This document shows positions 24,834-58,821 of a stretch of 64,000 nucleotides of DNA, one piece after another. How positions within the stretch are numbered: the stretch's first letter is position 1; every line of letters starts with the position of its first letter. The notes below the pieces were generated by a model. The model was given only the letters and a program-made list of their open reading frames with translations, was not told the origin of the DNA and did not search any database. The stretch is from assembly GCA_051362555.1 (NCBI GenBank), contig CM120641.1:682001-746000 (forward strand), written 5' to 3'. This stretch comes from Lingula anatina. Its lineage: Eukaryota > Animalia > Brachiopoda. The position numbers and the translations under genes were made by a program.

Positions 24834-25058
24834 GACCCCATTCCCATAGATTTAAGATCGATCTATCCCTGTGGGGAGTCTCACTAGATTACTGTCAGCT
24901 TAGCCTGCTTAAGCGTCTGTCCCGCCTACTAAAAACTGTAAGGGGGTAATTAACTATGGTGCGCGCTCTGCTGACTGCAATTTAGCGTGAACCCCCAGGG
25001 AGTTAGGTTGATCAAAATCTAAATCTCTGGATCAATCTAAATCTCTGGGAATGCACCC
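24834..25058 (+). mobile_element. PIF/Harbinger-like MITE (full copy)
   Basis: TTA flanks both ends; imperfect TIRs (CATTCCCATAGATTTAAGATCGATC / GATCAATCTAAATCTCTGGGAATG). Related copies at ~22801, ~39600 and ~41514. Confidence 0.72.
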
Positions 25059-25684
25059 TTAGTGTGGGAGTCATCACTAGAATTAAATTTTGTAGATATG
25101 CTTAAAAATATTGAGTAATGTAGAGATTGGATTTTATGCAATAGTATTGACAAGAATAGTGTGCGGTCGAAACAAATTTATGAAGACATCCCTCCCCTAA
25201 AAAAGTGCAAGATGTCAAATTCCAACTTATGTTTAGCTTTTCAGGTGTTGTGTTTTGTTGACAAAATTTACAAGTGAGTGAAAAATAAATGTTATAAAGA
25301 AATTGTTTAATGTGATATTAAAGAAAAGTACATACCCTGGTATGTGAATTATTTTACATGAAATTCGTTGCAGGGGAGCGTTGTTGTAAACGTAACCTTA
25401 AGGATCGAGTGTAAGTAAAAAGTTTATTTCGCACAAGAATTATCCGTCTCTCCTCTCGTTTTCATTGCAAGCACAATGCAGCGGTATACTGCAGCAACAT
25501 TGTGCCAAAGAAGACGCGCGCAATCTGCCATTGGACTGTAGAACCCTTTCTTCAAAAGCAGTGAAATATATTTATTAGATGTTTTCTGAAATGATAAAAA
25601 TAAGACCACTTCATGTGGAAATAAAAATACTGTGAGTGAATCTGCCAGAATAACGGAAGGTACAGAGCTTTGTTTACAGAGCTT

Positions 25685-26769: not shown

Positions 26770-28041
26770 ATGTTTATTATAGTTAAATACGGGAACAACG
26801 AGGAGTTGATCTGCAACCCGAGCTGTGCCGTTGTGAACCTGCTCAACAACATTAAGAAACGGACAGGCTTCGGTAACACTCCAGTTAGCCTGGACTTGTC
26901 CGACGAAACAGGTGAGGGTCGGTAGGGGGTTCTGTATCAAGTGGAACGTAAAATTAGTTAAGTATCTTTATGCAGCAAGACTCGGCTGTGATTTTGAGAA
27001 AAAGTGCTACCCGGCTCCAAGATCGTTTCCGTGAACTTTTGATAGTAAGATAAGGAACCGCCATATGAGTTCTAACACTAAGTTTTTTAGATCCCGACAC
27101 GTATTGCTAGTTAATCAAATTAGCATTTGAATTGTGTTACGTTTCATCGTGTTAATACCAGTCAAATCTTTATACTATCATGTACAGTGGTCTACGAAGT
27201 TTTCTCTCTTCGGACACATCGCTACTAAACGTACTCTACTACATGTACTACCGGGTCGGTACTACTATTACTACTAGAATAGTACTACTATCGTTCACTA
27301 TACTAATTACAATACATATGACATGCCATGAAAATCTGCTGAATTCGCCCTATCCCCCTTTAAATGAAATAACTGAATATCTGCCGGACCGGTATGGTTT
27401 ATTTAACAACTTGTATTTATGTACTCTTTCACTTCATTATAAGCACCTGAAAAATGTCGGTCGTGCATAAGAGTTCATCGGCTTGGTCAAATAACAACAT
27501 TTTATCATTCTAGTTCATTAATGAAAAAGTTAAAGATAAGCTAACCAAGTAAATAAAACATCAGCCCGTGGATGGGAGGTTTTATATAGTGTTTATTGAT
27601 CAAGAGTCGTCAATCATGTCATCATTAGTTTACATGCTATCTGAAGAGTGCCAATTTCTCGATTTAAAATGTCGTCTCAAGTAGATTTCTATATTTGCAG
27701 GTTTGATAAAGGAGTTGGATGCACACAAGCACGATTATGCAACCAAATATCTGGTCTCCCACAACACTTACATCCTAGTGGAGAAACAGATGCTCCCACC
27801 AGACGATGACAACTACAACGGGGACGGCGACTCCTCCTCTCCTTTACCAGGAAAATACCAATATATACCACTCTTGGAAAAACACAATGAGATTTTCCCG
27901 AACTTGAAACTTCACGTGGCTGAAGTACAGAAGAAGAGGAAGATGCGAGCGACCAGTAAATCCCCAAGTCCCGCCGGCCGGGTCACCCTTAGCTCCAAGT
28001 CCAAGAAGAAGCCGAGTCAGTCGAAAATTGCCAAGAAATGA
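26770..28041 (+). CDS. CXorf65/C22orf15-like uncharacterized protein (2 coding exons)
   Basis: Exon 26770-26911 (MFIIVKYGNNEELICNPSCAVVNLLNNIKKRTG..LDLSDETG, donor GTGAGG) joins in phase 1 to 27701-28041 (LIKEL..DYATKYLVSHNTYILVEK..YIPLLE..basic tail). This matches the recalled CXorf65 pattern MFIFIKHGDNQ..NTNCAVV..IDLCEQTG..EYASKYL..FVPLL. Confidence 0.85.
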
Positions 28042-30167: not shown

Positions 30168-36652
<6,485 letters not shown>

Positions 36653-36736
36653 TATGGAACTTCCACTCTAAATACATGTGCGCATGTCCCAATTCTTTGT
36701 CGATAGAGGTCACTGCTGTAAACCTCCCTTTGGTTA

Positions 36737-36947
36737 TAACTCCTTGTCATAACCAAGATAGAACAAGTCCTTATCTTCATCCGGTGTGTTTATATGGTAT
36801 AAAAACCATTCTTAACATGAACGATCTGGAAAAGATATGGACTAACCCAGCTTCAATATCTGATAAGATAACTCAGACCTTAACCTATAAGTCTCTGCAC
36901 TCTGTATATCAGGACTAGTGGGAAAAATTAATGAGCAGCAGAACGGG
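36737..36947. promoter_or_regulatory. Putative bidirectional promoter spacer between the two mirrored first exons
   Basis: Lies between the divergent ATG|GTGAGT exons at 36652(-) and 37032(+). Each arm carries an NRF1-like CATGCGCACATG and an ETS-like GGAAGT just upstream of the ATG. Function is inferred from position. Confidence 0.5.
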
Positions 36948-37031
36948 TAACCAAAGGGAGGTTTACAGCAGTGACCTCTATCGACAAAGAATTGGGACAT
37001 GCGCACATGTATTTAGAGTGGAAGTTCCATA

Positions 37032-40000
37032 ATGGTGAGTACGCTCTAATTTGTTATTGTGTATTTGGTTGTAGTATCCCATTGAAATTATTTTAAAGTG
37101 AAAGCTTAAAAGTGATAACATAGTGTCGGATTGGTACTTTCTGAACTAAACTTGAAATAATGGTTAGATATTCATGGTAATAGAAGATATTTTTAAATGC
37201 CGGTTCAATTCGTCTCCCGATTTTTTCTCCAATTTTTTGCTGAATCACATTTGCAACTGCCTACCTATGCAACCTATGATGGGTCACGTCAAAATACTCA
37301 CCCAAGAGCCCCAGCTGTCGGCTCTCTTGTGTTTGTTTCCCTTGGTTCTATTGTGAGTTATTGTAGCCATATCCCTGGAGTGTGGGGGTTCATCGCAGTT
37401 AGAGTGGAAGGTCTTTTCAAGTCTGCTTTTGAAACTATTTAGGTATATCAGAAAATTTTTCAAACTGATCAGAAAGTTAAAATACTTATATCTTCTGAAA
37501 AGTAATGCAAAAAACAGATGAATTCTTAAAATTTTATTTTTAAAATATTCCTACAAGCAACATAGATATTGAAGTATTTTAACTGCAAAATTTCACCAAA
37601 AGTGTCCACACTTTTCAGCTAAAGACCCATGACCACTGACCAGCAGTAATCACTCAGCTGTAGCTGCAGCTCAAAATGCTTATGACCAATTAGGGCTCTA
37701 TGTTAATCTAATGACCCAAAAACTAACCCAAATTGGCGACTGCACAATCACATGGCTGGGATGGCTTCGGTGCAGATCATGTACTATAAATGTTGCGCAT
37801 CAAATAAACTATACTTCGCATGGTTTAATTTTCATGATTTTTTAGCATAAAATTGCAAATTTCATTAACTTTAGTAGTTTACACAGAATAAATTACAAAA
37901 ACTTCCATGTAGTACTTATCTGAATTTTTTAACATTTTGTCGAGGCAAAACTTAAAAGTTCTCTTTTTGAAAGCACATTAATTGCATTACTTCAGACACC
38001 TGCTTTGAACACGACAGGACTTAGCAGTGCTACCCAAGCCCCTTTTTCTAGCTTATCAAATCTTTCAAACTGAGACCTCTAAAAGCGATATGAATATAAT
38101 AGTTTTCTTTGTTTAGATAATGATTTTATTATACAAGAATTCTGACTGTATATTAATGAACTGGGTGCGTATACGTCATGGTGTTCCAGTAGGAAAAATT
38201 GCTTTAAAAATAGTACACCACCATCGTTGATAAAGTCGCCACTGACGCTAGAAAATCCTTTTGATGGCCATTTCCCTGAGCTAAATACGTAAGTGAATAT
38301 CAACAAACAGTTGTCACGCGTATTTGTTCACAGATATACTTGATACAAACGATAAAATATACCTATTACAACATGCATCTGGTGTAAACTGAAATTGCAG
38401 CCCGTTGGCCATGGAGGAGTGTTGGTATTATCGCTGATAAAATCACCATTAGCTCTAGAAAATCCTCCTGAGGCCCATTGACTGACACTAAAAACCCTAG
38501 TGAATATAACCAAGTGGTTGTCACTAGTAATTGTCCTCTGGTCTGCTTGATATGAACGATCAAAGTTCACCAATTTAACATTGAGAGTTATGGGCGCAAG
38601 CCGATGTTTTACCCTAGTCCAAAATGAGAGCCTCGTTCTGGGTTCAGTAATCCGGTAACCGACTGTAAGAATACGCATAACGAACCTTTCTGAGATCGCA
38701 TTTGGTTTCTGTATCGTATAAATAAACTTAATTTTGCTTCAGAAATGAGTTTTATTGAACCTTTTCGCTATTACATCTTTGGAGGACAAGACAAGGTCAT
38801 CGGTCATTCACTGGTCGCCATTTTCGCGAACGAGGCAACAACTTGCTTCACTTTTCGAACTTAGAACAGAATTAGACATATGAAAGACCCCAATTTAATA
38901 ATTCAAACTATAAATTTTAGACTAAAGTACCAGAACAGAAGCTGCATAAATGTATGCAACATGATAATAGAACGTAGACGTAAGTACTCTTTGTAAGATA
39001 AGACTTTGATTACCTGTGGACCATTCTGATTGCCAAAAAGATAAATAAACCATCTTTCTTGTGCCAAAAGGTAGGTTTTTTTTATGAAGAAGAACCCAAA
39101 TGCCATCTCAGAGAGGTTTGCTATGCATACCTAGAAGTAAATATCGGTCCATTTCTATCTTTATAAGAAACACCCCTGGCATTGCTACAGTTCTTGTATT
39201 ATTGGAATAGCAGACAATACTTATGTCATTACATAATTTAATTCTGAAAAAATTATTGTTGAAGATGTTTAAGGGGCCAATTGCAAAACTGCTGGGATTT
39301 ATCTCCCACAATTTAATTAATTTATTTTTTTGCCAAAACATTTTAAAGTTACATTTATTAAAAAGAGTGTGGATTCTCAGTAATGCAAATAACCATTTCT
39401 ACTATGTTTTTGATATGACTTAGATAAAGTCCAAGACTGGATTTAAAAAGGTGAAATATCATAACAGAGCCGTGTATGTTGATGGCTCCATCAAGCTGGA
39501 GTCAATGCCGTAGGCGCTCATGTCAAAATAAACCATCCCTTAACAACCCCCCCCCCCCCCCCCCCCCCAAGTGTTGTACATCCCAGTGACAATTAGAGCG
39601 GGTTCTCATGCCTAGATCGATCATCTGGATCAGTAAAACTTCCTGGGGAGTCTCACTAAATTGCTGTCAACTCAACCAGCTCAAATGTCTGTCATGCCTA
39701 CCGAACTTGGGTAAAGATGATTACACCCTAACAGTTTTACTAGGTGTGACAGACATTTAAGACATTTAAATTTGGTACAATTTCCATAATAAGTGTTATT
39801 GAGCATTTGGTTTTATTTTTAGGACCAAAGCCAGTCTGGAGCTGAAGCAGGAAGGAAGAAAGAAGAAAAAAAATTAAAAGGATCTGAAGCAGATATAAAG
39901 TTGCCACAAAGTATTATTTTTAACAATGTTACTAATTAGACCTAGATTGTTAAATAACTATGTTGTAATCTAGTGTGCCCTTGCAATTCACAGTATGGGC

Positions 40001-43000
40001 TATGGAATTTATCATGTGAGTGATCACTGCAGTGATTTTCAGGTCAGAAGTATTCTATCTGAATTCAATAAATAGATCTGCTTGTGTTGTTTTTGGTAGC
40101 CTTAACTCCACTGTTCTCGTCCAACACACTGCTGTGTGTTTTTTCATGTAACCATTATAGATGTATTTTGCAGTGGCAATGAATTTATGTTTTCATATTT
40201 CACAGGATGGATTCCATGGCCAATTTGGAAAAAGTTGCTGATTTTTTTTATTGCTTCTACCATAATGCCGCCAGTTACAGCCAACCTAGAGGAGACATGC
40301 AAAAATGGTAAGTTTTCACAGAGATTAAAGTATATTTAGTGAAATAGGTATAAGCATTATTGTACCACCAGTGTGTTGCTGGCAGTGCACGTGCTTTTAG
40401 TCCCTACCCATCTCGTCCACCTCCTCCGCCGCCATGTTACCACTATCACTTCTCCTCCTAGACTATAAGAGCCTGAGTACCCATCTCTTGGATTTAGGTC
40501 ACATATAAACTTGATGCGTTCCACTTAAATTTTTAGCTTTGTGGGTGCTCGGGTCTGGGTGGGGCGCTCGTCACAATGCACCCTTGTCTGTAATTTGCAA
40601 GTCTGATAAACTAGCACAAACTGTTATGTCTATAAGCATTTTTATTGTGATTGGGCACAAAAGAAATGAAAAGTTTTTCTATTTCCAGATAAGATCTTCA
40701 ATTAATTGTTTTTTTTTCTTATTGATGAGAGCTATTGAAAACAATATATGTTATGCCCAAGCCATGTAATCTCTGAGGGAAGTCCTTTAACAAATGTGAA
40801 CCAAATAGTTACAATATGTGGCTACTTCAGCATAGGGGTCAAATATGTAGCTTTTTACCTTCTTGCACTAAGGGTAACATTCACATTTCCTTCTCTTATT
40901 TGATCCTTATTGTGTAAATATACATAACTCTTTTCAAATATCTAGAAGTGTTAATACCTAATTCATCAAGTAAATAGATATTACAATTTGTTTACAGCAA
41001 ATGTAACGGCACTAAGTGGAAAGGACTTCACCTGTAGCTTTCAACTACCAGTAAGAGAGTCTGTGTTTTCGACTTATGTCTTGTGGAATTCCCAGCAACT
41101 ATTTCAGCATGTGCAAAATTCTGATGAGCCGATACATCGGTTTACCAATTTTACTGGGCTGAAAGACAGGAGGTACATGACCATTCTTGCTGGGCTGAAA
41201 GACAGGATGAACGTGACCATTCTTAACAATGGACATGTAAGCATGCGAATAAAGGCTGCAAGACCAGAAGACAGTGGAACGTACACATTCCAGCAAGTAT
41301 TTTCAGACAGGAAGCCTATAAACACTTCTTTGAAAATAAATTTTGTTAATGGTAAGTGAAAGTACTCATATTTTCTACTAACTCAAATCATAAAGATAGA
41401 GGGCATGTTTTCCTGAAAGTCATTGGGCAATACTAAAAAAATGCATCACAGTCCTGATTTATATATTTAAAGGTAGTCTTCAGTGTTGCATCTGGGTACT
41501 AAAAACTGGGAAAGGGTGCTTTCCCAGAGATTTAGATCGATCTAAAGATTAAGATTTAGATTGACCTAACTCCCTGGGGGTTCCCGCTAAATTGCAGTCA
41601 GCCGAGCAGGCACCATATTTAATTACCCCCTTACAGCTTTTAGTAGGCAGGACAGACGCTTAAGCCGGCTAAGCTGACAGTAATCTAGTGAGACTCCCCA
41701 CAGGGATAGATCGATCTAAAAATCTATGGAAATGGGGTGAAATACTACAATTAAAACATCATCAAGATAGAGCATGCTGTCCTTGTAATGCACAGCTGAG
41801 TACACTTCATACAATTCTTGTAATCACATGTATAATCTTCTTTACCTTTACTATAAACAGTGCACTCGGTAGGATTTTTCTAAGGGAGTACCGTAACCCT
41901 TGCCCAAAAAAAGAAGGGGTAATTTTCAAAATGAAGGGGTAAAATTAAAAAATGCTCATCAAGGTGTAATTACTATGTCACCTTATAGTGTTGTTTCTTT
42001 GGCTTTTTCTCCAAAAATCAGTGGGGGGGGGGGGGGGGGGGGGGGGGGGGGTGGTGAAAATATAACATGTAATTTATTAGAGATTTTACATTGCTTTTAA
42101 ATTACCACAGAAACAATCAAAATACAACAAGTACGACTGCACTTCATAGCCAAAAATTTACAATCTATTCTTGACTGAGATTTAAAAATGCTCCTGGCCT
42201 AACTGCTTCCTTAGTAAAGTTTTTAAAAAAACAAGCGCTCTGTAATAGTTGGGAGATGGAGAGATAGAGAACGGCGCCAAAATGTCTGGACATTGACAAG
42301 TAGTCACCCAGTATCGGTCTCTGTCAAACAAGCATTTTTTAGTATACTATGTGAGAAGGGACACAAAATTTACATATTTAGCCATTTTAATCAATCAAAA
42401 TGTTCATACTTCTTACTCTTCCTAGTGTTTCTCCCTAAAATTGATGCTGACAAAAAGTAGGTCAAGTCGGGAACATTAGTTTTACTAAATTGTTTATAAA
42501 AATTAAACCTTTGCTTTCAATTTGTAAATAATTACTAGAAATGTTATTTCACAGTTTGTTGAAAGATAATTTTTATTTATGTTTGTTAGCGCAGCACTTC
42601 AAGTTCAACTGTTTTCTAAGCTGGCCAAATCTGGAGCTAGCCGGTTGCTGCAAACCACTTTGTTTCCAACCGGCAAATGACTGCCAATAATAAACGATCT
42701 ATTTTGTCTGTGATAATAAATTTTACACTTCAAATTTTCCGGGCAAGTGAACAGCCGAAAGTCACTTGCGTTTCCGGGCAACTACCAGCTAAATTTTAGT
42801 TGCCCGGCTGATAAAACTAGTTGCGAAACGCAACCATCGCAAGTAGGTATGTTGGACTCTGAAATCTATAGTAAATAACTTTGCCTACCTTGCATGACAA
42901 AACCTTTTAATTGACTGTTGTTTTTTTCCTTTGCTTTTCCTTTTTCTCGTCATTTTGTCATCACTGGTAATCAGCAGAGCTGGAAATTCCCGGTCGCCCG

Positions 43001-45752
43001 CTCATCAAATGCGACTAAAAATTTATTCTGACGACTAAAACTACAAAAGTCACAAGGGTTACTGGCCTAAAGTATTTGGTCTGGGCGAGTGATTTAAATT
43101 GGTCCTAAATGTATGGTTGCTCAATTAAAATGTTGAACAATTATGTGAATAAAAAAACGATCATTTCATCGTTGTTCATACCTTGTTTATACTAAAGAGA
43201 GGCACACGTGCTTTGACCTAAAACTTGCATATTATGACCAATCAGAGAAGATTACGTCATCCTCTGCGGGTCAGTGAAAGAAGAAGCATGTTTTAGTCGG
43301 GTAATTCAAATATCTTAAGAAAAAAATGAGACACTTGGGAATCAATTATGACATTTTCAACATGAGTCTGACCGTCAACAGTCAACGGACTGGTCAACAT
43401 CGCCGATCTTCAAAGCCAAAGGTGTGCGTATTCGTACGCGCTGGGGCTCCAGCCAATGCGTAAAAACAGCAAAACAACGCGTAATTACGCACTCTCATAC
43501 GCTAACGAGTTTACTGTATAAATGTATAAAAGTTATTGCAAAGCAAATTATAGAGATGTGCTTTACATTTTCAGCGGAGACCAATAGCTCCATCCCAGAG
43601 AACACCACAATCCCTGAGACTGGTAAGTATCGACCCAGCACTAGTTTAGCATTATATCTCTACTGAATTCATTCAAAGCCGTTACAAAATAGTGAATGAC
43701 ATTGTTGAAGAACCTGCATTTTTTTTGAAGTTGTTCTTGTTTGTAATTGTACCACCAGCGTTAGCGCTGGCGGTACACATGGTTTTAGTCCCGTCCGGTC
43801 CGTTCCACCGGCATGTTACCGTTACCGCTTCTCCTCCTAGACGGTAAGGGCCCCCATACCCATCTCTTGGATTTAGGTCACCTATAATCTCAACTCGTTC
43901 CACGTAAAATTTGGGCTTTGTCGGTATTGGGGTCTAGGTGTGGCACTCATTGCAATGCACCCTTGTCCAAAAATGGCAAAATTAAATGCTAATTATCTAC
44001 CCTACGGAAGGAATTATGGGAAAAATTTCTACAGACGGCTTTCCAAAAGTCATATGTGTAGATTTCAAATATGCCCTTGGATTTGACCTTTGACCTTTAT
44101 TTCAAGGTCAAACGGGCAAAAATTTTCAAAAAAATGAATTTTTTTACGAAAAAAAATTTATTTGCGCTGTTATTCAGACACCACACAGACTTAACCAATA
44201 ATATTATTGGAAAATGTTACCCTTCAGGTCATCTTTCATCTATGTGAATTTGGGGTCAATCGGTGCATTTTCACGGGTGTAGCGGCCATAAGATACCGAA
44301 ACTGAAAACTGTCTCTAATTCGGGAACCGTTAATGCTAGAGACCCATTCTTTTTTGCATTTTGTAGAGCATGTAAAGCCCAACACTGGAGGTGGTCTCCA
44401 TTTTTTTGTATTCCATACGGTTTTCGAGTTAAGCTGTATCAAAAAGTACATATTGGTGGTGAAAGCAAAATGTGCAGTACGGTAATGGATAATAAATTTT
44501 GAACTCTGGAAAAATAAAACATAAGGCTTGGCAAAGCAGACAACTTGTGGTCAAAAATGACATTATTTCATCAAATTAGAACATCTGGAACTTTAGAGCA
44601 CCTCCCATTTCAAGAATTTTGACCAAAATGACCTTTTCTGTATTTTAATTAATTTTTTCTGTACGAAATTTATGGCACATTATGGTAACTCCAAAATTAT
44701 AACATTTAGTCCCTTATATCTCCAAAACTGGCAGAGATAGGTCCTTAGTTACTAAACTTGAATGGAAAGTCATATACTGGCAATCTAAATGTGACTTTGA
44801 AATTGACCTTTGACCTACTTTTCACCATGAGTTGAACTTTGCAAATTTTGGTTCCCTTTTATCTCCAAAACTGGCAGAGAGAGGTCCATAGTTACTTTTG
44901 AACTTGAATAGGAAGTCATATACTGGCAATCTAAATGTGACCTTGAAATTGACCTTTGACCTACTTTTTATCATGAATTGAACTTTGCAAATTTTGGTTC
45001 CCTTTTATTTCCAAAACTAGCGAGATAGGTCCATAGTTACTATTGAACTTGAATATGAAGTCATATACTGGCAATCTAAGTGTGACCTTGAAATTGACCT
45101 TTGACCTACTTATAATCATGAACTGAACTCTGCTAATTTCTTTCTCTTTTAACTCCAAACCTGGCAGAGATAGGTCCATAGTTACTATTGAACTTGAATA
45201 GGAAGTCATATACTGGCAATTTACTGTGACCTTGAAATTGACCTTTGACCTACCTTACGATGAACTTAACTTTGATTGTACCATTTTAAGTTATATATAT
45301 TTTTTGCGTATTTTGAAAATTCTTGTTGATTGCATTTTTATAGCTTGTCAAGCATAAGACTGGTGGCTGTGTCCCTTATTTTGTGTATGTAGGGGTCTAT
45401 ACGAATGCGCTTGCTCCAGCTGGTGGTACAATATTCGGAGGCGGTATCGCCTCTCTGATCCTCTAGTTAATGTGTGTATTTTTTGTTTGATATTATACTA
45501 TAGTATTAGTATAGCTGTTTCCTTGAAAGAAAAGTTGAGATGGATTGTTGGACTTGTTTTATGTTGCGTTGGGTTTGGGTTGTTGTCTATTTAAGGTGTT
45601 TCCTTGAATGATTTTCAGATTCACCTTTGCCACCAAAAGGCAATTGGGAATGGATTGCTGTAGTTGTTGTTTTGGTGACTGTTGGTGTTCTGGTTGGTCT
45701 GGTTCTTCTGGTTGTCTTTCTTAGGAGGAAGAAAAGGGGAAGCTGTACAGTG
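37032..45752 (+). CDS. Putative chimeric type-I membrane protein: PSMC1-derived N-terminal leader, signal-like segment, V-type Ig domain, S/T/P stalk, TM helix (3' end uncertain)
   Basis: Phase-consistent exons: 37032-37034 (ATG), 39823-39910 (DQSQSGAEAGRKKEEKKLKGSEADIKLPQ), 40206-40307 (RWIPWPIWKKLLIFFIASTIMPPVTANLEETCKN), 40998-41351 (phase 1-1 Ig exon, ..GKDFTCSF..W..VSMRIKAARPEDSGTYTF), 43575-43622 (AETNSSIPENTTIPET), 45619-45752 (WIAVVVVLVTVGVLVGLVLLVVFL then RRKKR). The next exon may be 52039 (GAT TGA) or 58563. Confidence 0.72.
39600..39750 (+). mobile_element. Degenerate copy of the PIF-like MITE
   Basis: Contains TAGATCGATC and CCTGGGGAGTCTCACTAAATTGCTGTCA, shared with 24834-25058. 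Confidence 0.55.
40361..40600 (+). mobile_element. 5' fragment of HINE-like family A
   Basis: TGTACCACCAG start and CCCATCTCTTGGATTTAGGTCAC match the 5' ends at 43748 and 48980. Confidence 0.65.
41514..41738 (-). mobile_element. PIF-like MITE, reverse orientation
   Basis: Reverse complement of the 24834-25058 element (GGGTGCTTTCCCAGAGATTTAGATCGATC ... GTGAGACTCCCCACAGGGATAGATCGATC). Confidence 0.75.
43748..45468 (+). mobile_element. Helentron-associated (HINE/DINE-1-like) non-autonomous element, family A, with ~4 copies of a 146-bp repeat
   Basis: 5' subTIR TGTACCACCAGC with adjacent hairpin; 3' subTIR GCTGGTGGTACA (45419-45430); GGAGGCGGTATCGCCTCT hairpin; CTAGTT end; internal array ~44715-45255. 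Confidence 0.75.
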
Positions 45753-47660: not shown

Positions 47661-48979
47661 CAGAGGCTTTAAACTTAAAGAATTTGCAGGTAAAGCTTAA
47701 TTGGACCATTTTTCAAAATATTATGCTGTTTTTTTTTTTGGGGGGGGGCATATATGCAATACTGATAAAACATTTCAAGGAAAACTAATACCCTAACTAA
47801 CTAACTTTAGTGATCAGTCTTACTAAAATACAGGTTGAGTTTGGAAATCAGCTTGATTAGACAATTTTTACAAAAGTAATGCAGGTTTTTTTTCACTTTT
47901 TCAGCATATTTTATCGACCATTATACTGGAAGCATGAAAACTGTGACATATTTTGTTTTAAAACTTGTAGAACCAATTCTGTGTATGATCATATCAAGTT
48001 TGAAAATAAGCTTAAAGGGATAATATGGTAATTCTCCGATCTATACGAATGATTTTAATTAATTATTTTTGGAAGATAATCATTTTGTTCGTAAGGTTTG
48101 AAATGCAATCCGCAAAAAATTGCCACGCGTTCGTATCCTTTGAAATACGAATGGAATATGGCTGTACCGGAAGTTATCTCCACTTACCTACATCGCTAAG
48201 TGTAAGCATTACTTTCAGATTAAATCACTGCTTTTAGCACAAACAAATTATTCTTGCGATATTGCAAATCAAACAAACTAAACAAAAGTCGTGTATTCAA
48301 GTTAAAACAACCTCTTAATACTAAAGAGGTACCGTTTCTCCCAAGACAGGACAACATCGTTTTTCCCTGTACAGTTTCTACCAAGACAGGACAACATCGT
48401 TTTTCCCAACTTATGTCAAAAACAGACAAGAATATTTTCATTTCCAGTACATTAAAATTTTTCTACAGGAATCATGAACTGTATAGCTGTTATTTGTGTT
48501 GCATATTTTATTTATTGCGTGTTTACTTTTAACATGATATCACAGAGAGAAAATTTGCAATATTAATAATTTCACAACCTTTACCCCATTACATAAACTT
48601 CTTCCGCCAAAAGAAAATGCTTGAAACTCCTCAACAACGTTAATAAACGATTTTACTTGATATAAAAATATCATCAGCTCAATTCAAGTCTATTTATGAA
48701 AGTCTTTTACAGCATATTCATTTGCACGTAATCAATGTAAATGTAAGTAGAAAAAAATGCAGAAGAACTGCAGGCAAATTTGTATAAAGCCAATGGAATC
48801 CACAAAAATTGACGTTTTCAGGTAAAATTTTAACTTGGCAATGTACCTATACATTGTCTTCAAGATTCCTCTGGCCTTATATATTATAAAGTAAAAGCTG
48901 AGTTGGCGCACAGGAGTGTAACAAGACATATGCATGGATGCACTGTGCCTGCAATTTTTTTGGGGCCAAGCATTATATT

Positions 48980-51898
48980 TGTACCACCAGCGTTAGCGCT
49001 GGCGGTACACATGGTTTCGGTCCCGTCCGGATCGTTCTGCCGGCTCTGCCAGCTCCGCCGGCTCCGCCGGATGGCTACCGTTACCGCTTCTCCTCCTAGA
49101 CGGTAAGGGCCCCCGTACCCATCTCATGGATTTAGGTCACCTATAATCTCAACTTGTTCCACGTAAAATTTGGGCTTTGTCGGTATTGGGGTCTGGGTGT
49201 GGCACTCATTACAATGCACCCTTGTCTAAAAATGGCAAAATTAAATGCTAATTATCTACCCTACGGAAGGAGTTATGGGAAAAATTTTTATAGACGGCTT
49301 TCCAAAAGTCATATGTGTAGATTTCAAATATACCCTTGGATTTGACCTTTGACCTTTACTTCAAGGTCAAATGGGCCAAAATTTTCAAAAAAATGAAATT
49401 TTTTACGAAAAAAATTTTTTTTGCCCTGTTATTCAGACACCACACAGACTTAACCAATAATATTATTGGAAAGTGTTACCCTTCAGGTCATCTTTCATCT
49501 CCATGAATTTGGGGTCAATCGGTGCATTTTCACGGGAGTAGCGGCCATAAGATACCGAAACTGAAAACTGTCTCTAATTCGGGAACCGTTAATGCTAGAG
49601 ACCCATTCTTTTTTGCATTTTGTAGAGCATGTAAAGCCCAACACTGGAAGTGGTCTCGGTTTTTTTGTATACCATACGGTTTTCGAGTTACGCTGTATCA
49701 AAAAGTACATATTGGTGGTAAAAGCAAAATGTGCAGTACGGTAATGGATAATAAATTTTGAACTCTGGAAAAATAAAACATAAGGCTTGGAAAAGCAGAC
49801 AACTTGTGTTCAAAAATGACATTATTTCATCAAATTTGAACTTCTGAAACTTCAGAGCACCTCCTATTTCAAGAATTTTGACCAAAATGACATTTTCTTT
49901 ATTTTAATTAATTTTTTCTGTACGAAATTTAAGGCACATTATGGTAACTCCAAAATTATAACATTTAGTCCCTTATATCTCCAAAACTGGCAGAGATAGG
50001 TCCATAGTTACTATTGAAGTTGAATAGGAAGTCATATACTGGCTATCTTTCTGTGACCTTAAAATTGACCTTTGACCTACTTTTCACCATGAACTGAACT
50101 TTGCAAGTTTTGCTTCCCTTTTATCTCCAAAACTGGCAGAGATAGGTCCATAGTTACTATTGAACTTGAATAGGAAGTCATATACTGGCAATCTAAATGT
50201 GATCTTAAAATTGACCTTTGACCTACTTTTCACCATGAACTGAACTTTGCAAATTTTGCTTCCCTTTTATCTCCAAAACTGGCAGAGATATGTCCGTAGT
50301 TACTATTGAACTTGAATAGAAAGTCATATACTGGCAATCTAAATGTGACCTTGAAATTGACCTTTGACCTACTTTTCACCATGAATTGAACTTTGCAAAT
50401 TTTGCTTTCCTTTTATCTCCAAAACTGGCAGAGAAAGGTCCGTAGTTACTATTGAACTTGAATAGGAAGTCATATACTGGCAATCTATATGTGACCTTAA
50501 AATTGACCTTTGACCTACTTTTCACCATGAATTGAACTTTGCAAATTTTGCTTCCCTTTTATCTCCAAAACTGGCAGAGCTAGGTCCATAGTTACTATTG
50601 AACTTGAATAGGAAGTCATATACTGGCAATCTAAATGTGACCTTAAAATTGACCTTTGACCTACTTTACACCATGAACTGAATTTTGCAAATTTTGCTTT
50701 TCTTTTATCTCCAAAACTGGCTGAGATAGGTCCGTAGTTACTATTGAACTTGAATAGAAAGTCATATACTGGCAATCTAAATGTGACCTTGAAATTGACC
50801 TTTGACCTACTTTTCACCATGAATTGAACTTTGCAAATTTTGCTTTCCTTTTATCTCCAAAACTGGCAGAGATAGGTCCGTAGTTACTATTGAACTTGAA
50901 TAGGAAGTCATATACTGGCAATCTATATGTGACCTTAAAATTGACCTTTGACCTACTTTTCACCACGAATTGAACTTTGCAAATTTTGCTTTCCTTTTAT
51001 CTCCAAAACTGGCAGAGATAGGTCCGTAGTTACTATTGAACTTGAATAGGAAGTCATATACTGGCAATCTATATGTGACCTTAAAATTGACCTTTGACCT
51101 ACTTTTCACCATGAATTGAACTTTGCAAATTTTGCTTTCCTTTTATCTCCAAAACTGGCAGAGATAGGTCCGTAGTTACTATTGAACTTGAATAGGAAGT
51201 CATATACTGGCAATCTAAATGTGACCTTGAAATTGACCTTTGACCTACTTTTCACCATGAATTGAACTTTGCAAATTTTGCTTTCCTTTTATCTCCAAAA
51301 CTGGCAGAGATAGGTCCGTAGTTACTATTGAACTTGAATAGGAAGTCATATACAGGCAATCTTTCTGTGACCTTAAAATTGACCTTTGACCTACTTTTCA
51401 CCATGAACTGAATTTTGCAAATTTTTCTTCCCTTTTATCTCCAAAACTGGCAGAGATAGGTCCATAGTTACTATTGAACTTGAATAGGAAGTCATATACT
51501 GGCAATCTAAATGTGACCTTAAAATTGACCTTTGACCTACTTTTCACCATGAACTGAACTTTGCAAATTTTGCTTTCCTTTTGTCTCCAAAACTGGCAGA
51601 GATAGGTCCATAGTTACTCTTGAACTTGAATAGGAAGTCATATACTGGCAATTTACTGTGACCTTGAAATTGACCCTTGACCTATCTTACATCTTACGAA
51701 GAACTAAAATTTGATTGTACCATATATATTTTTTGCAAAAGTTTAAAAATTCTTGTTGATTGCATTTTTACAGCTTGTCAAGCACAAAACTGGTGGCTGT
51801 GTTCCTTATTTTGTGTATGTGGGGGTCTATACGAATGCGCTTGCTCCAGCTGGTGGTACAATATTCGGAGGCGGTATCGCCTCTCTGATCCTCTAGTT
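48980..51898 (+). mobile_element. HINE-like family A, second full copy, with ~12 copies of the 146-bp repeat
   Basis: Same termini and body as 43748-45468. TATCTCCAAAACTGGCAGAG recurs at 49976, 50122, 50268 ... 51582 (period 146). Confidence 0.8.
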
Positions 51899-52493
51899 TT
51901 ATCTATAAATTTAGTGCATTTTATATTATAATCAAAAAAACCCCTACGATGTTAGTTTATGTCACCTGTATGCACAAATCCTCTGTAAAACATGTTATGC
52001 ATCATTGTTCTGACACCCCATCTTGTTTGCTTTCACAGGATTGAGGCAAACAATGCTAGTTACCTGCAGGAGTTCTATCTTAATCGTCCATTTAGCTGAA
52101 ACTTCATAAATTCTTAATTAATTGGCGGGTTAAGTGCCCTTCAACCCTCAGGTAGCCTTTGTCTTGAGTGTATCGAAAGCACTCTCGCTAGCTATTCAAT
52201 TCAATTCAATTCAGTATGATGGAAGGCCCTATAATTTTCTATTAGTATTAGTTTTTTTTAAATTTTCAGCTTCATAAACCATTTAACGACGTAACGCTGC
52301 ATCGAGGCAACTAAATCTGTCTAAACTGACAAACTATAGGCTGCATTTTTATGGTCTATGAGTATTGCGTTGATTTAGAAAGTTTAGGCATTTCAATTTG
52401 CTCATTTTTCAATTAAATTAATTAAAGTAATCTTGTTATACTCGTACATTTAATTTTAACTCTTATCATTACAATATCAGATATAAAATATAA

Positions 52494-55400
52494 GGCCACA
52501 CTTTTTTAATTTTATGGATGACATCCTGCGCGCGCACGGATTTTCGCCCGTTCTCAAAAAAAAAAAAAAAAAAAAAAAAAAGCCCCCCAGCCCCCAACGA
52601 AGTCGGTTGTCGCAAACGTTGTTATTGAATTTGCAAGGAAATGAGCTTTCTGCGCATGCGTATTTTCGCCACGTGGAAATGCGGCCACGTTGCTGTCAAA
52701 TTCATCTCTAGGATTACTTTCAAATTACACAACAATAAAAGTCGTCAAGAGAACGGGCGCCATCGTTTTGGATTGGTATGCCATTGATATTGGGCATGGA
52801 GATATCACCTTTTTATGTACAGACACAGATGTGTCTGTACATATTGCCATCGCCTGCGTCTGTCGTCGCCGTCGCCGATGCCGATGCCGATGCCGATGCC
52901 GATGCCGTCGCCGTGCACTTTCCTTGTAAACACGATAAGTGGAGGGCAGTTTTACTTTTTGGCTTTATATTTACAGAGCTGATGAATATTCATAAAACGC
53001 AGGTCAAGTTCGAAAATCAGCATGATCGGGCCATTATTGTCGAAGTTATGCTGTTTTTTAACTTTTCAGCATATATGCAACCCTGTAAACACATTTTAAG
53101 GAAAACTGTTAGGCCTGTTGTCATGAAACTCACAGGAGTAATCAATCTTACTAAAACCCAGGTCAAGTTCGAAAATCGGGATGATCGGGCCACTATTTTA
53201 GTAGTTATGCTGTTTTTTCATTTTTCAGCATATATGCAACACTGTAAACACAATATAAGAAAAACAGATAAGCCAATTGTCATTAAACTCACAGGAGTGG
53301 TCAATCTTACTAAAACGCAGGTTGAGTTCGAAAATCAGCATAATCGGGCCATTATTTTAAAAGTTATGCTGCTTTTTCACATTTCCTCAGATTCAATTCT
53401 TAGGCATGTTAACAGTCTAATTATTTTACTAATAAGATACATAAAAGTGTTTGTTTGACATTTCCTGCATCTTTACAACATTGTTAGTTGATTATGTAAA
53501 AATGATGGTAAACTTGTTATCGTGTATTGTGTAATAAAGTGTCAAAAATGGAAATAAACTCATATCATTGCAGTTTGTCAGATTCAATCATTCACTATGT
53601 TCAGAATCTCAGAATGGAGGAAATTGGACATTTAACACTATTCTATTGATATTTTTCCCATCTCATCAATTTTCTTAGTTGATCATATAAGAATTGCAGT
53701 AAACTGTTTATTTTGTTTTATGTTAAAAAAAGTGTTAAAAATGGAAATAAACTCATGTCAGAACAGTGCTGTCTTGTTTCACATTTCCTCAGATTCAATT
53801 CTTAGGCATGTTAACAGTCTCATTATTTAACTAATAAGACATGTAAAAGTGTTTGGTTGACATTTCCTGCATCTTTACAACATTATTAGTTGATTACGTA
53901 AAAATAATAGTAAACTTGTTATCGTGTATTGTGTAATATAGTGTCAAAAATGGAAATAAACTCATATCATTGCAGTTTGTCAGATTCAATTATTCACTAT
54001 GTTCAGAATCTCAGATAGGAGGAAATTGGACTTTTAACACTGTTTTTTTTTTTGATAATTTTGCCATCTCATCAATTTTCTTAGTTGATCATATAAAAAT
54101 TGCAGTAAACTGATTATTTTGTTTTATGTTTAAAAAGTGTTAAAAATGGAAATAAACCCATGTCAGAACAGTGCATGTCAGAAAATGTCTTTGTTTACAT
54201 TTTGGCATTTTCAAGTTGTGACTTTGAAGTTCCTTGGGCCTGAAGACCTTTGCTAGTCACATTTTCTGAATATCCATGATATTAATATTTTATTATTAAA
54301 AATTGATGGTCATTATGCTGTTAAACATTATGTAATATTGCATCAAAATTTGAAAAAAAAAACTATTTTGGGCACTGCTCCCATGATGACCATTTAAGGA
54401 AAACCATGTCACTTACTGTTCTGAAACAGTACAGTAAATATGTACAGATGTGTCTGTACATATTGCCATCACCTGCGTCTGTCGTCGCCGACGCCGTCGC
54501 CGGCGCCGTGCACTTTCATTGTAAACACGATAAGTGGAAGGCAGTTTTACTTTTTGGCTGTATATTTACAGAGCTGATGAATATTCATAAAATGCAGGTC
54601 TAGTTCGAAAATCAGCATGATCAGGCCATTATTGTAGAAGTTATGCTGTTTTTTCACTTTTCAGTATATATGCAACACTGTAAACACATTTCAAGGAAAA
54701 CCGATAGGCCTGTTGTCATAAAACTCACAGGAGTTATTGATCTTACTAAAATGCAGGTCAAGTTCGAAAATCGGCATGATCGGGCCACTATTTTAGTAGT
54801 TATGCTTTTTTTTTCACTTTTCAGCATATTTAAAATTTGATGTTGAATTTGCAGTTTAACATAATGTATTTTTGCATCAGAATTGACAGTAGCCTATTTT
54901 ATGCATAGTTATTTCCTGTTTTTTCTCTGTACATTTGACAGCTTTGCTGCCTTGTTACAATTGTGCGAAAGGCTGGCGGTGGCCGAAACATTTCTGTGAC
55001 ATTCTGTATAAAGCAGCACATTAATACCAGGTTTTCTGTAGCGAAAAAAGGGTCGACAAGGGCGTCGAGGTATTTGGTGGGCTGAAGGTCGGACAGGCCA
55101 CCTGACAGTTTAGCTGCTTCGTGTGAGTTGAAGTTGACAAAATGGCATCGTCTGAAATGACCTTTAATAGATTTGGTAGTATTAAGCACATCTTTGCATC
55201 ATTTTTTAAACATTGCTGTGAAGTATTCAAAATGTTTTAATATTCTGAGAATACAAATAAAGACGCACTGTTTGATTGATATTTGTTTTATTGATTGCTA
55301 TACCAAATGAATGCATGAAATAACCTTAAATAGATTTGGTAATATGAAGTATATCAATTCATGCCTTTTTTTTTACATTTCTACGAAGTATTCACAATGC

Positions 55401-55609
55401 TTTAATATTTTGAGAGCATGGATAAAGACATATTGTTAGTTTGATACGTGTTTCTGTGGTTAAATTTGTGTTTCCAGCTGTGTACTGACAGCATTCCTTT
55501 ACTTAAGCAATTTTTTTTTTTTTTGGACTGTTTTTTTTTTTTTTCGCCCTCTCGCACCGATTTTGGGGTACCCAGAGGATGTCATCCATAAAAATAAAAA
55601 AGTGTGGCC
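52494..55609. mobile_element. PIF/Harbinger-like non-autonomous element (~3.1 kb) enclosing HINE family B sequence
   Basis: 34-bp TIRs GGCCACACTTTTTTAATTTTATGGATGACATCCT / AGGATGTCATCCATAAAAATAAAAAAGTGTGGCC (33/34); TAA on both flanks. Confidence 0.8.
52810..54830 (+). mobile_element. HINE-like family B copies (5' palindrome, (GCCGAT)n tract, ~161-bp repeats, ~400-bp tandem duplication)
   Basis: Palindrome TGTACAGACACAGATGTGTCTGTACA; repeated GCAGGTCAAGTTCGAAAATCAGCATGATCGGGCC; CACATTTCCTCAGATTCAATTCTTAGG at 53378 and 53780; a second 5' end at ~54441. Confidence 0.65.
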
Positions 55610-58562
55610 TAAATAGGCCTACAAAAACTTTTCCTGATTAAATTAAACAACGCCCCACCTCACGGAAGAGATAATAACGTCACTTTCACCACACCAGCTT
55701 GTCGTGTGTGTGCGCTGATCTCATCCACTACGACCGATCGACCGACTTTTGTCGGCCGGCGAAAAATTGTTCTGTGTGCGGCGGGCTTTAGATAAAATCT
55801 GGACAGCGAGCTGAATAAGGACCAAGAGAAACAAAGGAAGAATTTTCCTGCAAAGCTTCAAAGAACTAACATGGTGACAATTTTCACAAACAAATAATTA
55901 ATATAAGATATATCAGAGCTCTATCTTGTCTTATAATTGGTACCCTGAGTGTCAGAGCAACGTAAAAGCTAGCTTGTTAAATATATACCTTGTGATGGAG
56001 TCGCTTTTACTAGCTCTGACGAACAGTGACAATCTGAGGACGTTCTTCTTCAAATTTTTGCCTGGGGCGCTTCCATATTTGGAAGTCACACCTCACAGCT
56101 GTGTCCGCCTGGATCCATATTTGGAAGTCATAAGTCTCGTACGTCACAGGTTTGGCCGCCTGGAGCTGCCTTTCCCGCCTCACGCTGAAGTTATCTCGTG
56201 CAGATGAGACAAGAAGCAAAGTGCCTGACGAAGTTTGAATTGAAAATGTCTTGCAGTCGAAGGTCAGTGCCACAATAGAAGCAACATTCCGCTTTAAAAA
56301 CTGATTTTGGTGTAGCCATTGCGCAGCCCTTATAGTGGTATCGGGCATACAGTGTAGCTGTCAAATTTTGCACACGGCAAGCACGTGTATTGCGCATGTG
56401 TACATCTCAGGACTAAATGTTCTTTGATAAGCAAAAAATACAAAAACATTGGATATATCTTTTCTGTTCGAAGAATATTATTTATTTCTTCACTTTACAT
56501 CTTAAATACAGCAAATAAAATTAAATAAAGCAGAATTAAATCTGTTTTACGTTTCTTTTTGGTCTGATGACATTCAATTGCAGATTCACTGCGGAGCAGT
56601 TCTATTTGATTGATGGAAGTGTAACATGGCCGCTGGTCACTAGAGCCGGTATTGTTTATATGGGTTATATATGAAATCAAGATCGAGCTGGCAATACCGG
56701 AATCTAGAACCTAGGGTAATAATTGGTTGATTTTGGGAGACCTGCACCCCCATGTAAGAGGAATGATAGCTATCTTTCCAATAAATTATCACTGTTTCTT
56801 CACCACCAAGAAAAATTTATCTTCCATTTTATGATCAGTATTTCACGTCGAACAACAGTACTGCACCGTTATTCAGAATTCAGCTCGTCACAAGCAGGCA
56901 TAATCAGCAGTGCTTATAGTGTCTAAATTTCTTAAAAGTTTAAAGTTAAAAGTTTCTCCTTGTTAAATAAATATACTGTTCTGGGTGAAATAAATATACT
57001 GAAATCTTATTAAATCGGGAATATTTTAAACTTTTACTGATGATTTTATTAGTAGTACAAATAAGGCTGCCCTTCATCTGTTGCGTAAGTCCACATTTGG
57101 CTGTACCTGTGAATTTTAAAAGGTCTGGTTACGCCCCATGTAAACATTTAGTTATTCATAAGCGATTATCAAATAGTTGGCAGAAATTAAGTGTATGTTT
57201 CAACTCTGGAATATCATAAAGCAAGTCTTTGTAACACGAGCCTTTATCCATTTTCTCTGTAATTTCTAATTCCTTACTTTTATCAAGCACATTTAAGTAA
57301 TCCCAGAATGCCTTGCGCAAGACATTCGTCTGGCGTAGGAGCATGTGATGGCACATATAGATCATTGATGTAGCTCTCGGCGATAAAGTTGAATATATTG
57401 CTCAGCAAGTTAAGAAATGATAATAAACAGTAAGTAATTTGTGTACCAATGCTTTCATAATTTTTTAATAACAATGGTGGTGGTTTTAAAATTGGCCTGC
57501 AGCTGCCGGCGGGCAGGTTGAGTCCTCCAATCGTCTCTTTCAAAAACAGCACTAATAAGTGATAACAATCTCTCCTGTCAAGTGGCAGTTCCTTTGTTCG
57601 GAACGGTGGTCTGAAAACTCAATTTGATGAATCATGGGGTGAGTTTCAATTAGGCACACTTCCTTGCGTTCGGAAAATTAAAATTGTGCCCAAGGTGAGT
57701 CCAGCGATCGTTCATACAGAACGGAGGAAGAAAATTCAGGTTCAGAGAAAAAGCGTTTTGTTTGTAATTATCGTGGCGTTCGTATAGATCGGAGAATTAC
57801 CATAACTATTCATATGAGATCTATATTTCACAATAAAAACATTGTGAATAACTCACAGAAATATTATATATTCTGTTTTACAAGAAAACAGCAGTTATAG
57901 CTATTATTCTGATATCTGAGCTTGTTTTTAGACCATATGACCTCCATTGATGTCTATACTCTGTTAAAATCTCTTAAGAGATTTTAACCAAAAACCAAAC
58001 TTTATAGAAAAAAGCAGGGACTAACTTTGAATGTAAAAATGGATTCATTAACCATTGGTTAGTATAGGAAAATTGTTGTTTACTCCAGGAAAATTCATTT
58101 TTTTGGCCGAAACGAAGAGTTATTATCCCTTTGAACTCTTTTTCACTGGTCGATTACATAAAAATGATGGTAAACCTGTTGTCGTGTATTGTATAATTGA
58201 GTGTCAAAAATGGAAATGAACTCTGTTCAGTGCAGTTATCTCTTGTTCAAACATTGGGATTTTCATTATGTGAATATGAACTCTTGAAAGTGTAATTTTA
58301 TACATGGGTGGATTGAGAATGTCTTCTGGATCTTCGGGAAGACGGTCAGATTTTAAAGTTTTCATTGATCTTTTTTTTCTGTTGGAAGACCATCAAAATG
58401 GAGGATGGATCAACAAAGTTTTAATTAAAATTTAGAATACTGTCAGAAAATATCTCATGGCTAATTAACAAGCAACATAATCATACTTTCAGTTATTTTG
58501 TATGAAATGAAAAAGTGCAATGACACATTGGGAATTGATTTTTTCTTACTATTTTTGCACAG

Positions 58563-58742
58563 CTGATGCGTATGGCGTCACGTCTCTGCAAGAGGCAAAA
58601 ACTGGATGATCCTGCGACTTTAACTGACACTACATCCTCTTCGGATGCTAATGGCTCCCCCCCTTCGCTGGGTAATGACCTAAACACTCTTGAGATGATG
58701 GCATTAAGAACATTGGGTGGAAAAGCACAGTTAAATGACAGT
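58563..58742 (+). CDS. Orphan putative coding exon (phase 0-0)
   Basis: Good acceptor (TTTTTGCACAG) and donor (GTAAGT); open frame LMRMASRLCKRQKLDDPATLTDTTSSSDANGSPPSLGNDLNTLEMMALRTLGGKAQLNDS; upstream CAAG|GTGAGT donor at 57694. No family recognised. Confidence 0.4.
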
Positions 58743-58821
58743 GTAAGTTATTTCATATTTGTAAAAAAGGTCGACTCGCATGTTAACTATTTGTCAAAAT
58801 GCAAGAGAATGGGCCATCACA

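Follow-up and report, generated by a model that had tools for sequence, protein, structure and literature searches.

The 5' end of a proteasome gene appears in inverted copy at the head of an immunoglobulin (Ig) gene in the brachiopod Lingula anatina. PSMC1, which encodes the 26S proteasome ATPase subunit 4 (Rpt2), and LOC106152829, which encodes a predicted Ig-domain membrane protein, lie head-to-head in the 64,000-nucleotide stretch analysed here (assembly GCA_051362555.1, contig CM120641.1, positions 682,001 to 746,000; hereafter the window, to which all coordinates refer). The explanation that we regard as probable is that an inverted 2.1-kb copy of the PSMC1 5' end was fused in frame inside the signal-peptide exon of the Ig gene, with promoter and ATG borrowed from PSMC1. 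The chimeric Ig gene is real and well preserved, and it likely captured both the promoter and a leader from its neighbour.

Gene models of PSMC1 and of the chimeric gene

The parent gene is intact. Its eleven-exon chain gives an open frame of 438-445 amino acids with Walker A, Walker B and the GLYL end, a few boundaries being ambiguous, and in PDB searches 26S regulatory subunit 4 was hit by exon 3 (E 8e-11) and by exon 4 (E 6e-18).

The Ig exon retrieved a 100% match in L. anatina LOC106152829, annotated as 'uncharacterized', for which there are an isoform X1 of 345 amino acids and an isoform X2 of 295 amino acids, the latter under two accessions and starting at Met51. The six exons of the model (Table 1) join into an open 243-codon frame that is identical to residues 1-243 of RefSeq XP_013382020.1 (X1), and RefSeq independently models the same chimera junctions. 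The gene extends beyond 45752, as the total length of X1 indicates. The 5' part of the chimera is homologous to PSMC1, introns included, and the 3' part is homologous to a different family, that of LOC106171838. The chimera lacks the AAA+ ATPase and OB domains of Rpt2; the PSMC1 copy ends within exon 4, and the only further match beyond that exon is one 84-nt intronic repeat.

PSMC1-derived exons and intron

Exon 39823-39910 aligns to PSMC1 exon 2 at 42/53 nt and to PSMC1 exon 3 at 47/59 nt, with neither score reached by any of 500 dinucleotide shuffles, and it retains the phase-1 end. The two parental exons were merged through an in-frame deletion of ~375 nt with GGAAG at both ends, a microhomology that lies in a purine-rich stretch and is suggestive only. 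The intron that follows (39911-40205, 295 nt) is identical to PSMC1 intron 3 (297 nt) at 183 of 265 aligned columns (0/500 shuffles), whereas for PSMC1 introns 2 and 4, used as controls, 82/500 and 483/500 shuffles reached the score. In exon 40206-40307, AAAGTTGCTGA is located 25 nt from the acceptor, exactly as in PSMC1 exon 4, and the chance of this 11-mer falling within 10 nt of the expected offset is 7e-6. The first 36 nt of the exon are PSMC1-like in global alignment (p=0.0012, 5000 shuffles). CpG is depleted at 39.0-41.5 kb (observed/expected 0.21-0.34), as in the PSMC1 body, which is a weak indication.

Residue 2 of X1 is Asp, where Rpt2 has Gly2, described as a myristoylation site (PMC10686573). 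Neither the ATG at 40207 nor that at 40216 is in frame, and the first in-frame ATG of the signal exon, at 40265, lies inside the hydrophobic stretch. These features bear on an earlier sequence-only reading of the locus. It had described the ATG/GTGAGT exon of PSMC1 (slashes denote splice sites) in the + arm of a palindrome, the merger of PSMC1 exons 2 and 3 with its phase-1 donor, the match to intron 3, the KLL-encoding AAAGTTGCTGA at the parental offset, exons joining in frame with no in-frame ATG before the hydrophobic stretch, and the change of Gly2 to Asp, and all of these were recovered here. It had also proposed aligning exon 39823-39910 and its intron to PSMC1, which gave significant matches, and searching for an Ig paralog without the leader, which was found in LOC106171838.

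The PSMC1-derived exons might instead supply promoter and 5' leader RNA only, with the protein starting at ATG 40207 or 40216 and the proteasome frame acting as an upstream open reading frame (ORF). Such a start would give an ordinary short signal peptide and requires that the assembly or this allele be off by one base within a homopolymer stretch of exon 40206. An A5 and a T8 run closely follow the two ATGs, each of which is shifted from the frame by one base, and the excerpted account of the published L. anatina assembly (454 and Illumina reads in Newbler) mentions no polishing (PMC4595640). However, the assembled sequence has an unbroken frame starting at the PSMC1 ATG, the offset of 25 nt is that of PSMC1, X1 carries no low-quality label, no RefSeq isoform begins at 40207 or 40216, and Illumina coverage was included in the published assembly (PMC4595640). 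A start at either ATG is therefore considered quite improbable.

Probable fusion point and origin of the signal-peptide core

Past nucleotide 36, exon 40206-40307 is no longer related to PSMC1 exon 4: nucleotides 37-102 show no similarity globally (p=0.98) or locally (124/500 shuffles reached the score). The whole exon is at chance level in local alignment (249/500 shuffles), and the next intron shows no PSMC1 similarity (205/300 shuffles). The exon ends in phase 1 and PSMC1 exon 4 in phase 0. Ig leader exons usually end in phase 1.

HMMER, run in full against 1.84 billion representatives, returned 7 hits. One of them, LOC106171838 (182 amino acids, Lingula, different scaffold), is a paralog with a signal peptide, a V-set domain (PF07686) and a transmembrane (TM) helix, and without the PSMC1 leader. 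Query residues 42-184 aligned to its residues 5-137 (E 3.5e-10), and the alignment starts where the PSMC1 similarity stops. When the Ig domain sets the register (offset 37 residues, no gap), the paralog's signal peptide matches residues 42-56 without gaps (score 18; p=0.0004 with full shuffles, p=0.011 in a stricter test that keeps the last three residues in place). For residues 43-56 the score is +14 with this signal peptide and -19 with PSMC1. Residues 57-67 gave nothing against LOC106171838 (p=0.49). Among the remaining HMMER hits, one matching the tail (E 5e-12) was rejected as a relative, being a sum of weak matches to seven repeats, and four more were discounted as weak generic matches.

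The hydrophobic core is firmly not proteasome-derived. The sequence-only reading had suggested that the signal peptide evolved from proteasome coding sequence; this was not borne out, since the core fails both tests (p=0.98 past KLL; -19 vs +14) and only the part up to KLL is PSMC1-derived. Its other proposal, that the Ig-domain gene took over the promoter region, the ATG exon and the leader of PSMC1, is supported by the DNA homology, the intact parent and the RefSeq junctions. The fusion point thus likely lies inside exon 40206-40307, with the promoter, the ATG and a 42-residue N-terminal leader coming from the proteasome gene. The core is likely the Ig gene's own, a conclusion held with moderate confidence from one paralog at the protein level.

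For the whole signal exon to be a remodelled PSMC1 exon 4, its signal peptide would have to come from proteasome coiled-coil sequence. The exon does begin as PSMC1 exon 4 with the frame kept, and an unrelated leader nearly equals the paralog score in free register, but the loss of DNA similarity past nucleotide 36 and in the next intron, the difference in end phase and the in-register scores make this origin very unlikely.

The Kyte-Doolittle 9-mer mean is 2.6 at residues 42-50, V-x-A at residues 54-56 is in register with LOC106171838, and the net charge over residues 1-40 is +4. A 56-residue cleaved signal peptide is predicted, and an uncleaved anchor would likewise put the Ig domain outside the cell.

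Transcript support, splicing and selection

RefSeq uses the weak AAA/GTATTA donor of exon 39823-39910 despite a better donor 105 nt on. The gene has three RefSeq proteins. In the NCBI pipeline as outlined for the 2017 buffalo annotation, multi-variant models needed whole support by one long alignment or by the RNA-seq of one sample, and frameshift-corrected models were labelled low quality (PMC5737279). X1 is probably transcript-backed, because the pipeline required whole-model support for multi-variant genes. Gnomon is described as relying on intrinsic signals when there is little evidence (PMC12605758).

In a neutral simulation with four parameter sets, the frame, the absence of stops, three splice dinucleotides and the in-frame deletion were kept in 0.4-4% of runs. 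In the leader, 8 nonsynonymous and 7 synonymous changes were counted over 25 codons (dN 0.15, dS 0.62), five codons at the deletion joint being excluded.

Several observations weigh against a captured promoter and leader in a functional Ig gene. The donor at 39910 fits 5/9 consensus positions, compared with 7/9 for its PSMC1 equivalent; the competing donor (8/9, after 40015) ends in a stop, as does exon skipping. Two of the three RefSeq proteins begin at Met51 and lack the leader, and alternative splices ending in early stops would explain these X2 records. The pipeline rule comes from the buffalo paper and is assumed to apply to Lingula. The neutral simulation is open to ascertainment bias. 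With the intron as the yardstick, 10 changes are expected in the leader and 8 are seen, a difference that does not set it apart from neutral decay (P=0.29); scaling by dS gives P=0.025. The leader is unrecognised as Rpt2 at the protein level: a PDB search with the leader exon gave 0 hits at E 10, and no PSMC1 was among the 7 HMMER hits. The Ig ancestry of the core is read from the register and one paralog, at the protein level only, and one of eight other leaders, that of the unrelated hit matching the tail, scores 17 in free register, almost the 18 of the paralog. No relatives outside Lingula were found at close range (word-limited searches, in one of which the best 7997 candidates were scored, and the full HMMER scan).

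Many of these points would also fit a decaying chimera, transcribed off a copied housekeeping promoter, with X1 as a minor splice form and a protein of little or no function. The weak donor, the alternatives that yield stops, the two leaderless RefSeq proteins, selection on the leader that dN/dS leaves unproven, and the lack of relatives outside Lingula in the above searches all agree with decay, as does an Ig domain without its second Cys and with a 12-codon internal duplication. Decay is nevertheless unlikely in our estimate, because the frame and splice sites survive at ~0.4 substitutions/site pairwise, an outcome uncommon in the neutral runs; the signal, Ig, stalk, TM and tail exons are all open; the internal duplication is in frame; and the paralog LOC106171838 lacks the same Cys.

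Inverted repeat and putative shared promoter region

The start codons of PSMC1 and of the chimera lie 380 nt apart, head-to-head, in the arms of a 1010-nt inverted repeat with 3 mismatches and a 211-nt spacer. ATG/GTGAGT occurs at 36652 (-) and 37032 (+), the only ATG/GTRAG sites on either strand of the stretches scanned. The initial Met of RefSeq X1 must derive from an exon further upstream than exon 39823-39910, and on the + strand of 36737-39822 the sole ATG/GTRAG is the one at 37032, five weaker ATG/GT sites also being present. We infer that the spacer serves as a shared promoter. Its halves are complementary no more than expected by chance (590/1000 shuffles reached the score), and an 8-bp hairpin at its left edge (36730-36756) is near chance level. 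A TATAAAA in the spacer at 36798 and an ARE-like sequence at the donor of exon 1 (37036 and 36648) are also near chance level and were not used. A strong donor-like GG/GTGAGT at 36383 (+), mirrored in the right arm, lies within intron 1 and antisense to each ATG exon; it and its mirror could mark another first exon.

The PSMC1 copy shows two ages, with a Jukes-Cantor distance of 0.40 in the intron versus 0.003 in the arms (~69% vs 99.7% identity). The rest of intron 1 (1.85 kb) has no similarity to PSMC1 (68/200 and 146/300 shuffles reached the score). By analogy with SIGLEC11/16, the two ages likely reflect gene conversion across the 211-nt spacer that was confined to the central part of the palindrome because insertions blocked it further out. 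For the arms alone, there is a serious competitor to ongoing conversion, to which we give somewhat less than an even chance: their near identity may come from a recent second duplication, or from repeat collapse and gap filling. The published assembly, which may not be the source of the window, was built from short-read contigs with GapCloser at 1.6% heterozygosity (PMC4595640), identity falls off abruptly, and no old similarity survives beside the arm. On the other hand, the 3 mismatches and the outer edge, where a small indel is followed by 7 further matching bases, are unlike plain collapse, and the older copy, which lies beyond the arm with orientation and order unchanged, requires that an ATG exon be present at that place. 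A recent re-duplication would look like one large conversion in a single haplotype, and arm identity may be overstated because the published assembly used Newbler and GapCloser at that heterozygosity.

Ig-domain product and cytoplasmic tail

The Ig exon matches Pfam V-set at E 2e-5 with 25.1 bits, just under the cut-off of 26. The AlphaFold2 model of the domain, from a 4-sequence alignment, has a V-set fold (pLDDT 82) that Foldseek matched to the V domains of the T-cell receptor, IgLON5 and PD-L1 (E about 2e-5), and the Atlas also supports V-set. A 36-nt in-frame tandem duplication (31/36) at 41154-41226 is modelled as a helix insert. Cys occurs only at residues 62, 77, 241 and 252; the F-strand motif has none, as in LOC106171838, and the canonical B-F strand disulfide is missing. 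Some V-like domains, such as that of CD2, also lack this disulfide. With a single TM helix at residues 213-231 (19-mer hydropathy 3.35) and six ectodomain sequons, the product is predicted to be a type I membrane protein.

No further Ig copies were found in the window. A copy of the cytoplasmic-tail exon at 58563-58742 has an intact AG and GTAAGT, yet it is skipped by RefSeq, whose own copy is located outside the window. The RefSeq tail is 100% identical to LOC106171837 (101 amino acids), numbered beside LOC106171838 on another scaffold, which hints either at recent duplication within a small local cluster of Ig genes or at scaffolds that overlap.

Table 1. Coordinates of features of PSMC1 and of the chimeric Ig gene in the window
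Feature	Coordinates	Strand	Remarks
PSMC1 (Rpt2, 26S proteasome ATPase subunit 4), intact parent	30168..36652	-	11 coding exons
Left arm: 84 nt upstream of PSMC1 ATG, exon 1, first 923 nt of intron 1	35727..36736	-
Spacer, single-copy, 211 nt, putative bidirectional promoter region	36737..36947	.
Right arm	36948..37957	+	99.7% identical to left arm
Chimera exon 1, coding part (ATG), copy of PSMC1 exon 1	37032..37034	+
Rest of intron 1, repeat-like insertions	37958..39809	.	repeats 38223-38564, 38672-39129, 39644-39761
Exon 2: 5' of PSMC1 exon 2 plus 3' of exon 3	39823..39910	+	weak donor AAA/GTATTA
Intron homologous to PSMC1 intron 3	39911..40205	+	stronger alternative donor after 40015 leads to stop
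Exon 3, 5' part: remodelled PSMC1 exon 4 start, ending KLL	40206..40241	+	putative fusion at ~40241
Exon 3, 3' part: core and cleavage region of predicted signal peptide (residues 42-56)	40238..40307	+	register with paralog
V-set Ig domain exon, phase 1-1	40998..41351	+	no second canonical Cys
Stalk exon	43575..43622	+	two N-glycosylation sequons
Transmembrane exon, then basic stop-transfer stretch	45619..45752	+
In-frame copy of cytoplasmic-tail exon	58563..58742	+	54/60 residues identical to RefSeq tail

A repeat element in two copies (~90%) at 43741-45497 and 48973-51930 carries a 146-nt tandem array, with related pieces at 40359-40588. Within the long intron of the Ig gene, 52884-63975 contains a large family of 159-161-nt tandem repeats as well as 300-400-nt duplications, and a dispersed 200-nt element with inverted ends, resembling a miniature inverted-repeat transposable element, is found at 22806-22942, 24835-25060, 39644-39761 and 41512-41738.

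On the other side, the last exons of two more genes point towards PSMC1 (27685-28041 and 21670-24619, both +); one of these genes has a weak Pfam PF15874 match and the other ends in a TM exon. A TRIM-NHL-type gene (B-box, filamin and NHL repeats) with two long ORFs lies at 4370-7013 (-).

Proposed origin of the chimeric gene

We suggest the following order of events for an in-frame fusion inside the Ig leader exon. A fold-back or template switch would have made the inverted copy, leaving the 211-nt spacer in single copy, and would have linked PSMC1 exon 4 to a pre-existing Ig leader exon at codon 5-6 of the latter, so that promoter, ATG and n-region were replaced. A microhomology-flanked in-frame deletion would then have merged exons 2 and 3, with Gly2 changed to Asp. 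Insertions in intron 1 would have split the old copy in two, so that gene conversion would have gone on homogenising the inner 1 kb and the outer part would have fallen to ~69% identity. In the present protein, the 56-residue N-terminus would act as a long cleavable signal peptide, with the glycosylated Ig domain outside the cell.

Judging from the gene models, transcription of the Ig gene likely begins at the duplicated proteasome promoter, and translation of the predicted membrane protein at the duplicated ATG. The gain was likely regulatory, in that a receptor for adhesion or recognition came to be expressed broadly, like PSMC1, and the leader residues are likely tolerated passengers that are lost at cleavage. 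A bolder possibility is that conversion in the 2.2-kb palindrome keeps the Ig receptor wired to the PSMC1 promoter, so that its expression follows that of the proteasome and reports the activity of proteasome genes (e.g. induction by proteotoxic stress) at the cell surface, the basic proteasome-derived leader serving as the n-region of the 56-residue signal peptide; this is speculative and unlikely.

Comparison with known systems

Chimeric genes formed by partial duplication at the DNA level are well known, fog-2, Hun, SRGAP2C and DM-W being reviewed examples (PMC3449122). As in these, a new ORF was built from a copied part of a gene, introns included, with foreign sequence supplying the rest. 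In Lingula, however, the join falls within an exon of an Ig gene that already existed, and the copy is inverted, 380 nt from the parent ATG, with its 5' kilobase still 99.7% identical. The hominoid PIP5K1A-PSMD4 chimera PIPSL is another new gene with proteasome-subunit coding sequence, described as arising from a co-retroposed read-through RNA (PMC2773790); the Lingula DNA copy, in contrast, keeps introns and promoter, and its proteasome part is a short N-terminal leader.

SIGLEC11 and SIGLEC16 are also head-to-head Ig receptors, with upstream regions and first exons reported as 97-99% identical by conversion and distal parts diverged, but they are full paralogs 9 kb apart and conversion spans the ligand-binding domain (PMC5701461). 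The Lingula tract is shared with an unrelated housekeeping gene and contains only promoter-side DNA, one codon and intron. The eelpout type III antifreeze protein, from sialic acid synthase, is likewise described as having a secretory leader to which the initial codons of a cytosolic housekeeping gene contributed, its signal peptide arising de novo from 5' flank (PMC3449122), whereas the core in Lingula likely pre-existed in the Ig gene.

An inverted copy, an unduplicated spacer and a far end joined to other sequence are features of fold-back inverted duplications; the human cases described are kilobase-to-megabase disease rearrangements with spacers of at least 766 bp (PMC3907307), whereas the Lingula copy, whose layout fits such a formation, is 2.1 kb with a 211-nt spacer and was fixed long enough to diverge. 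The V-set fold, stalk, single TM helix and tail of the product resemble type I membrane proteins such as CD7, CD83, CD226, SLAM and PD-L1-like proteins, but the canonical disulfide is absent, and identity in structure hits is 11-19%, which does not imply orthology. The only close relative of the Ig protein found is the Lingula paralog. No description of the chimera, its loci or accessions was found in the literature searched, outside which lay supplements and subscription papers, any survey of Lingula immune genes among them.

In conclusion, the locus is no demonstration of a signal peptide born from proteasome sequence. It is a legible record of the birth of a gene, in which the duplication, the fusion point inside an exon, the exon-merging deletion and the leaderless paralog can all be read. 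The two ages within one copy suggest that a chimera can go on sharing an updated promoter with its unrelated parent, and, if co-expression with PSMC1 holds true, the locus would be a natural test of promoter capture by an invertebrate receptor family.

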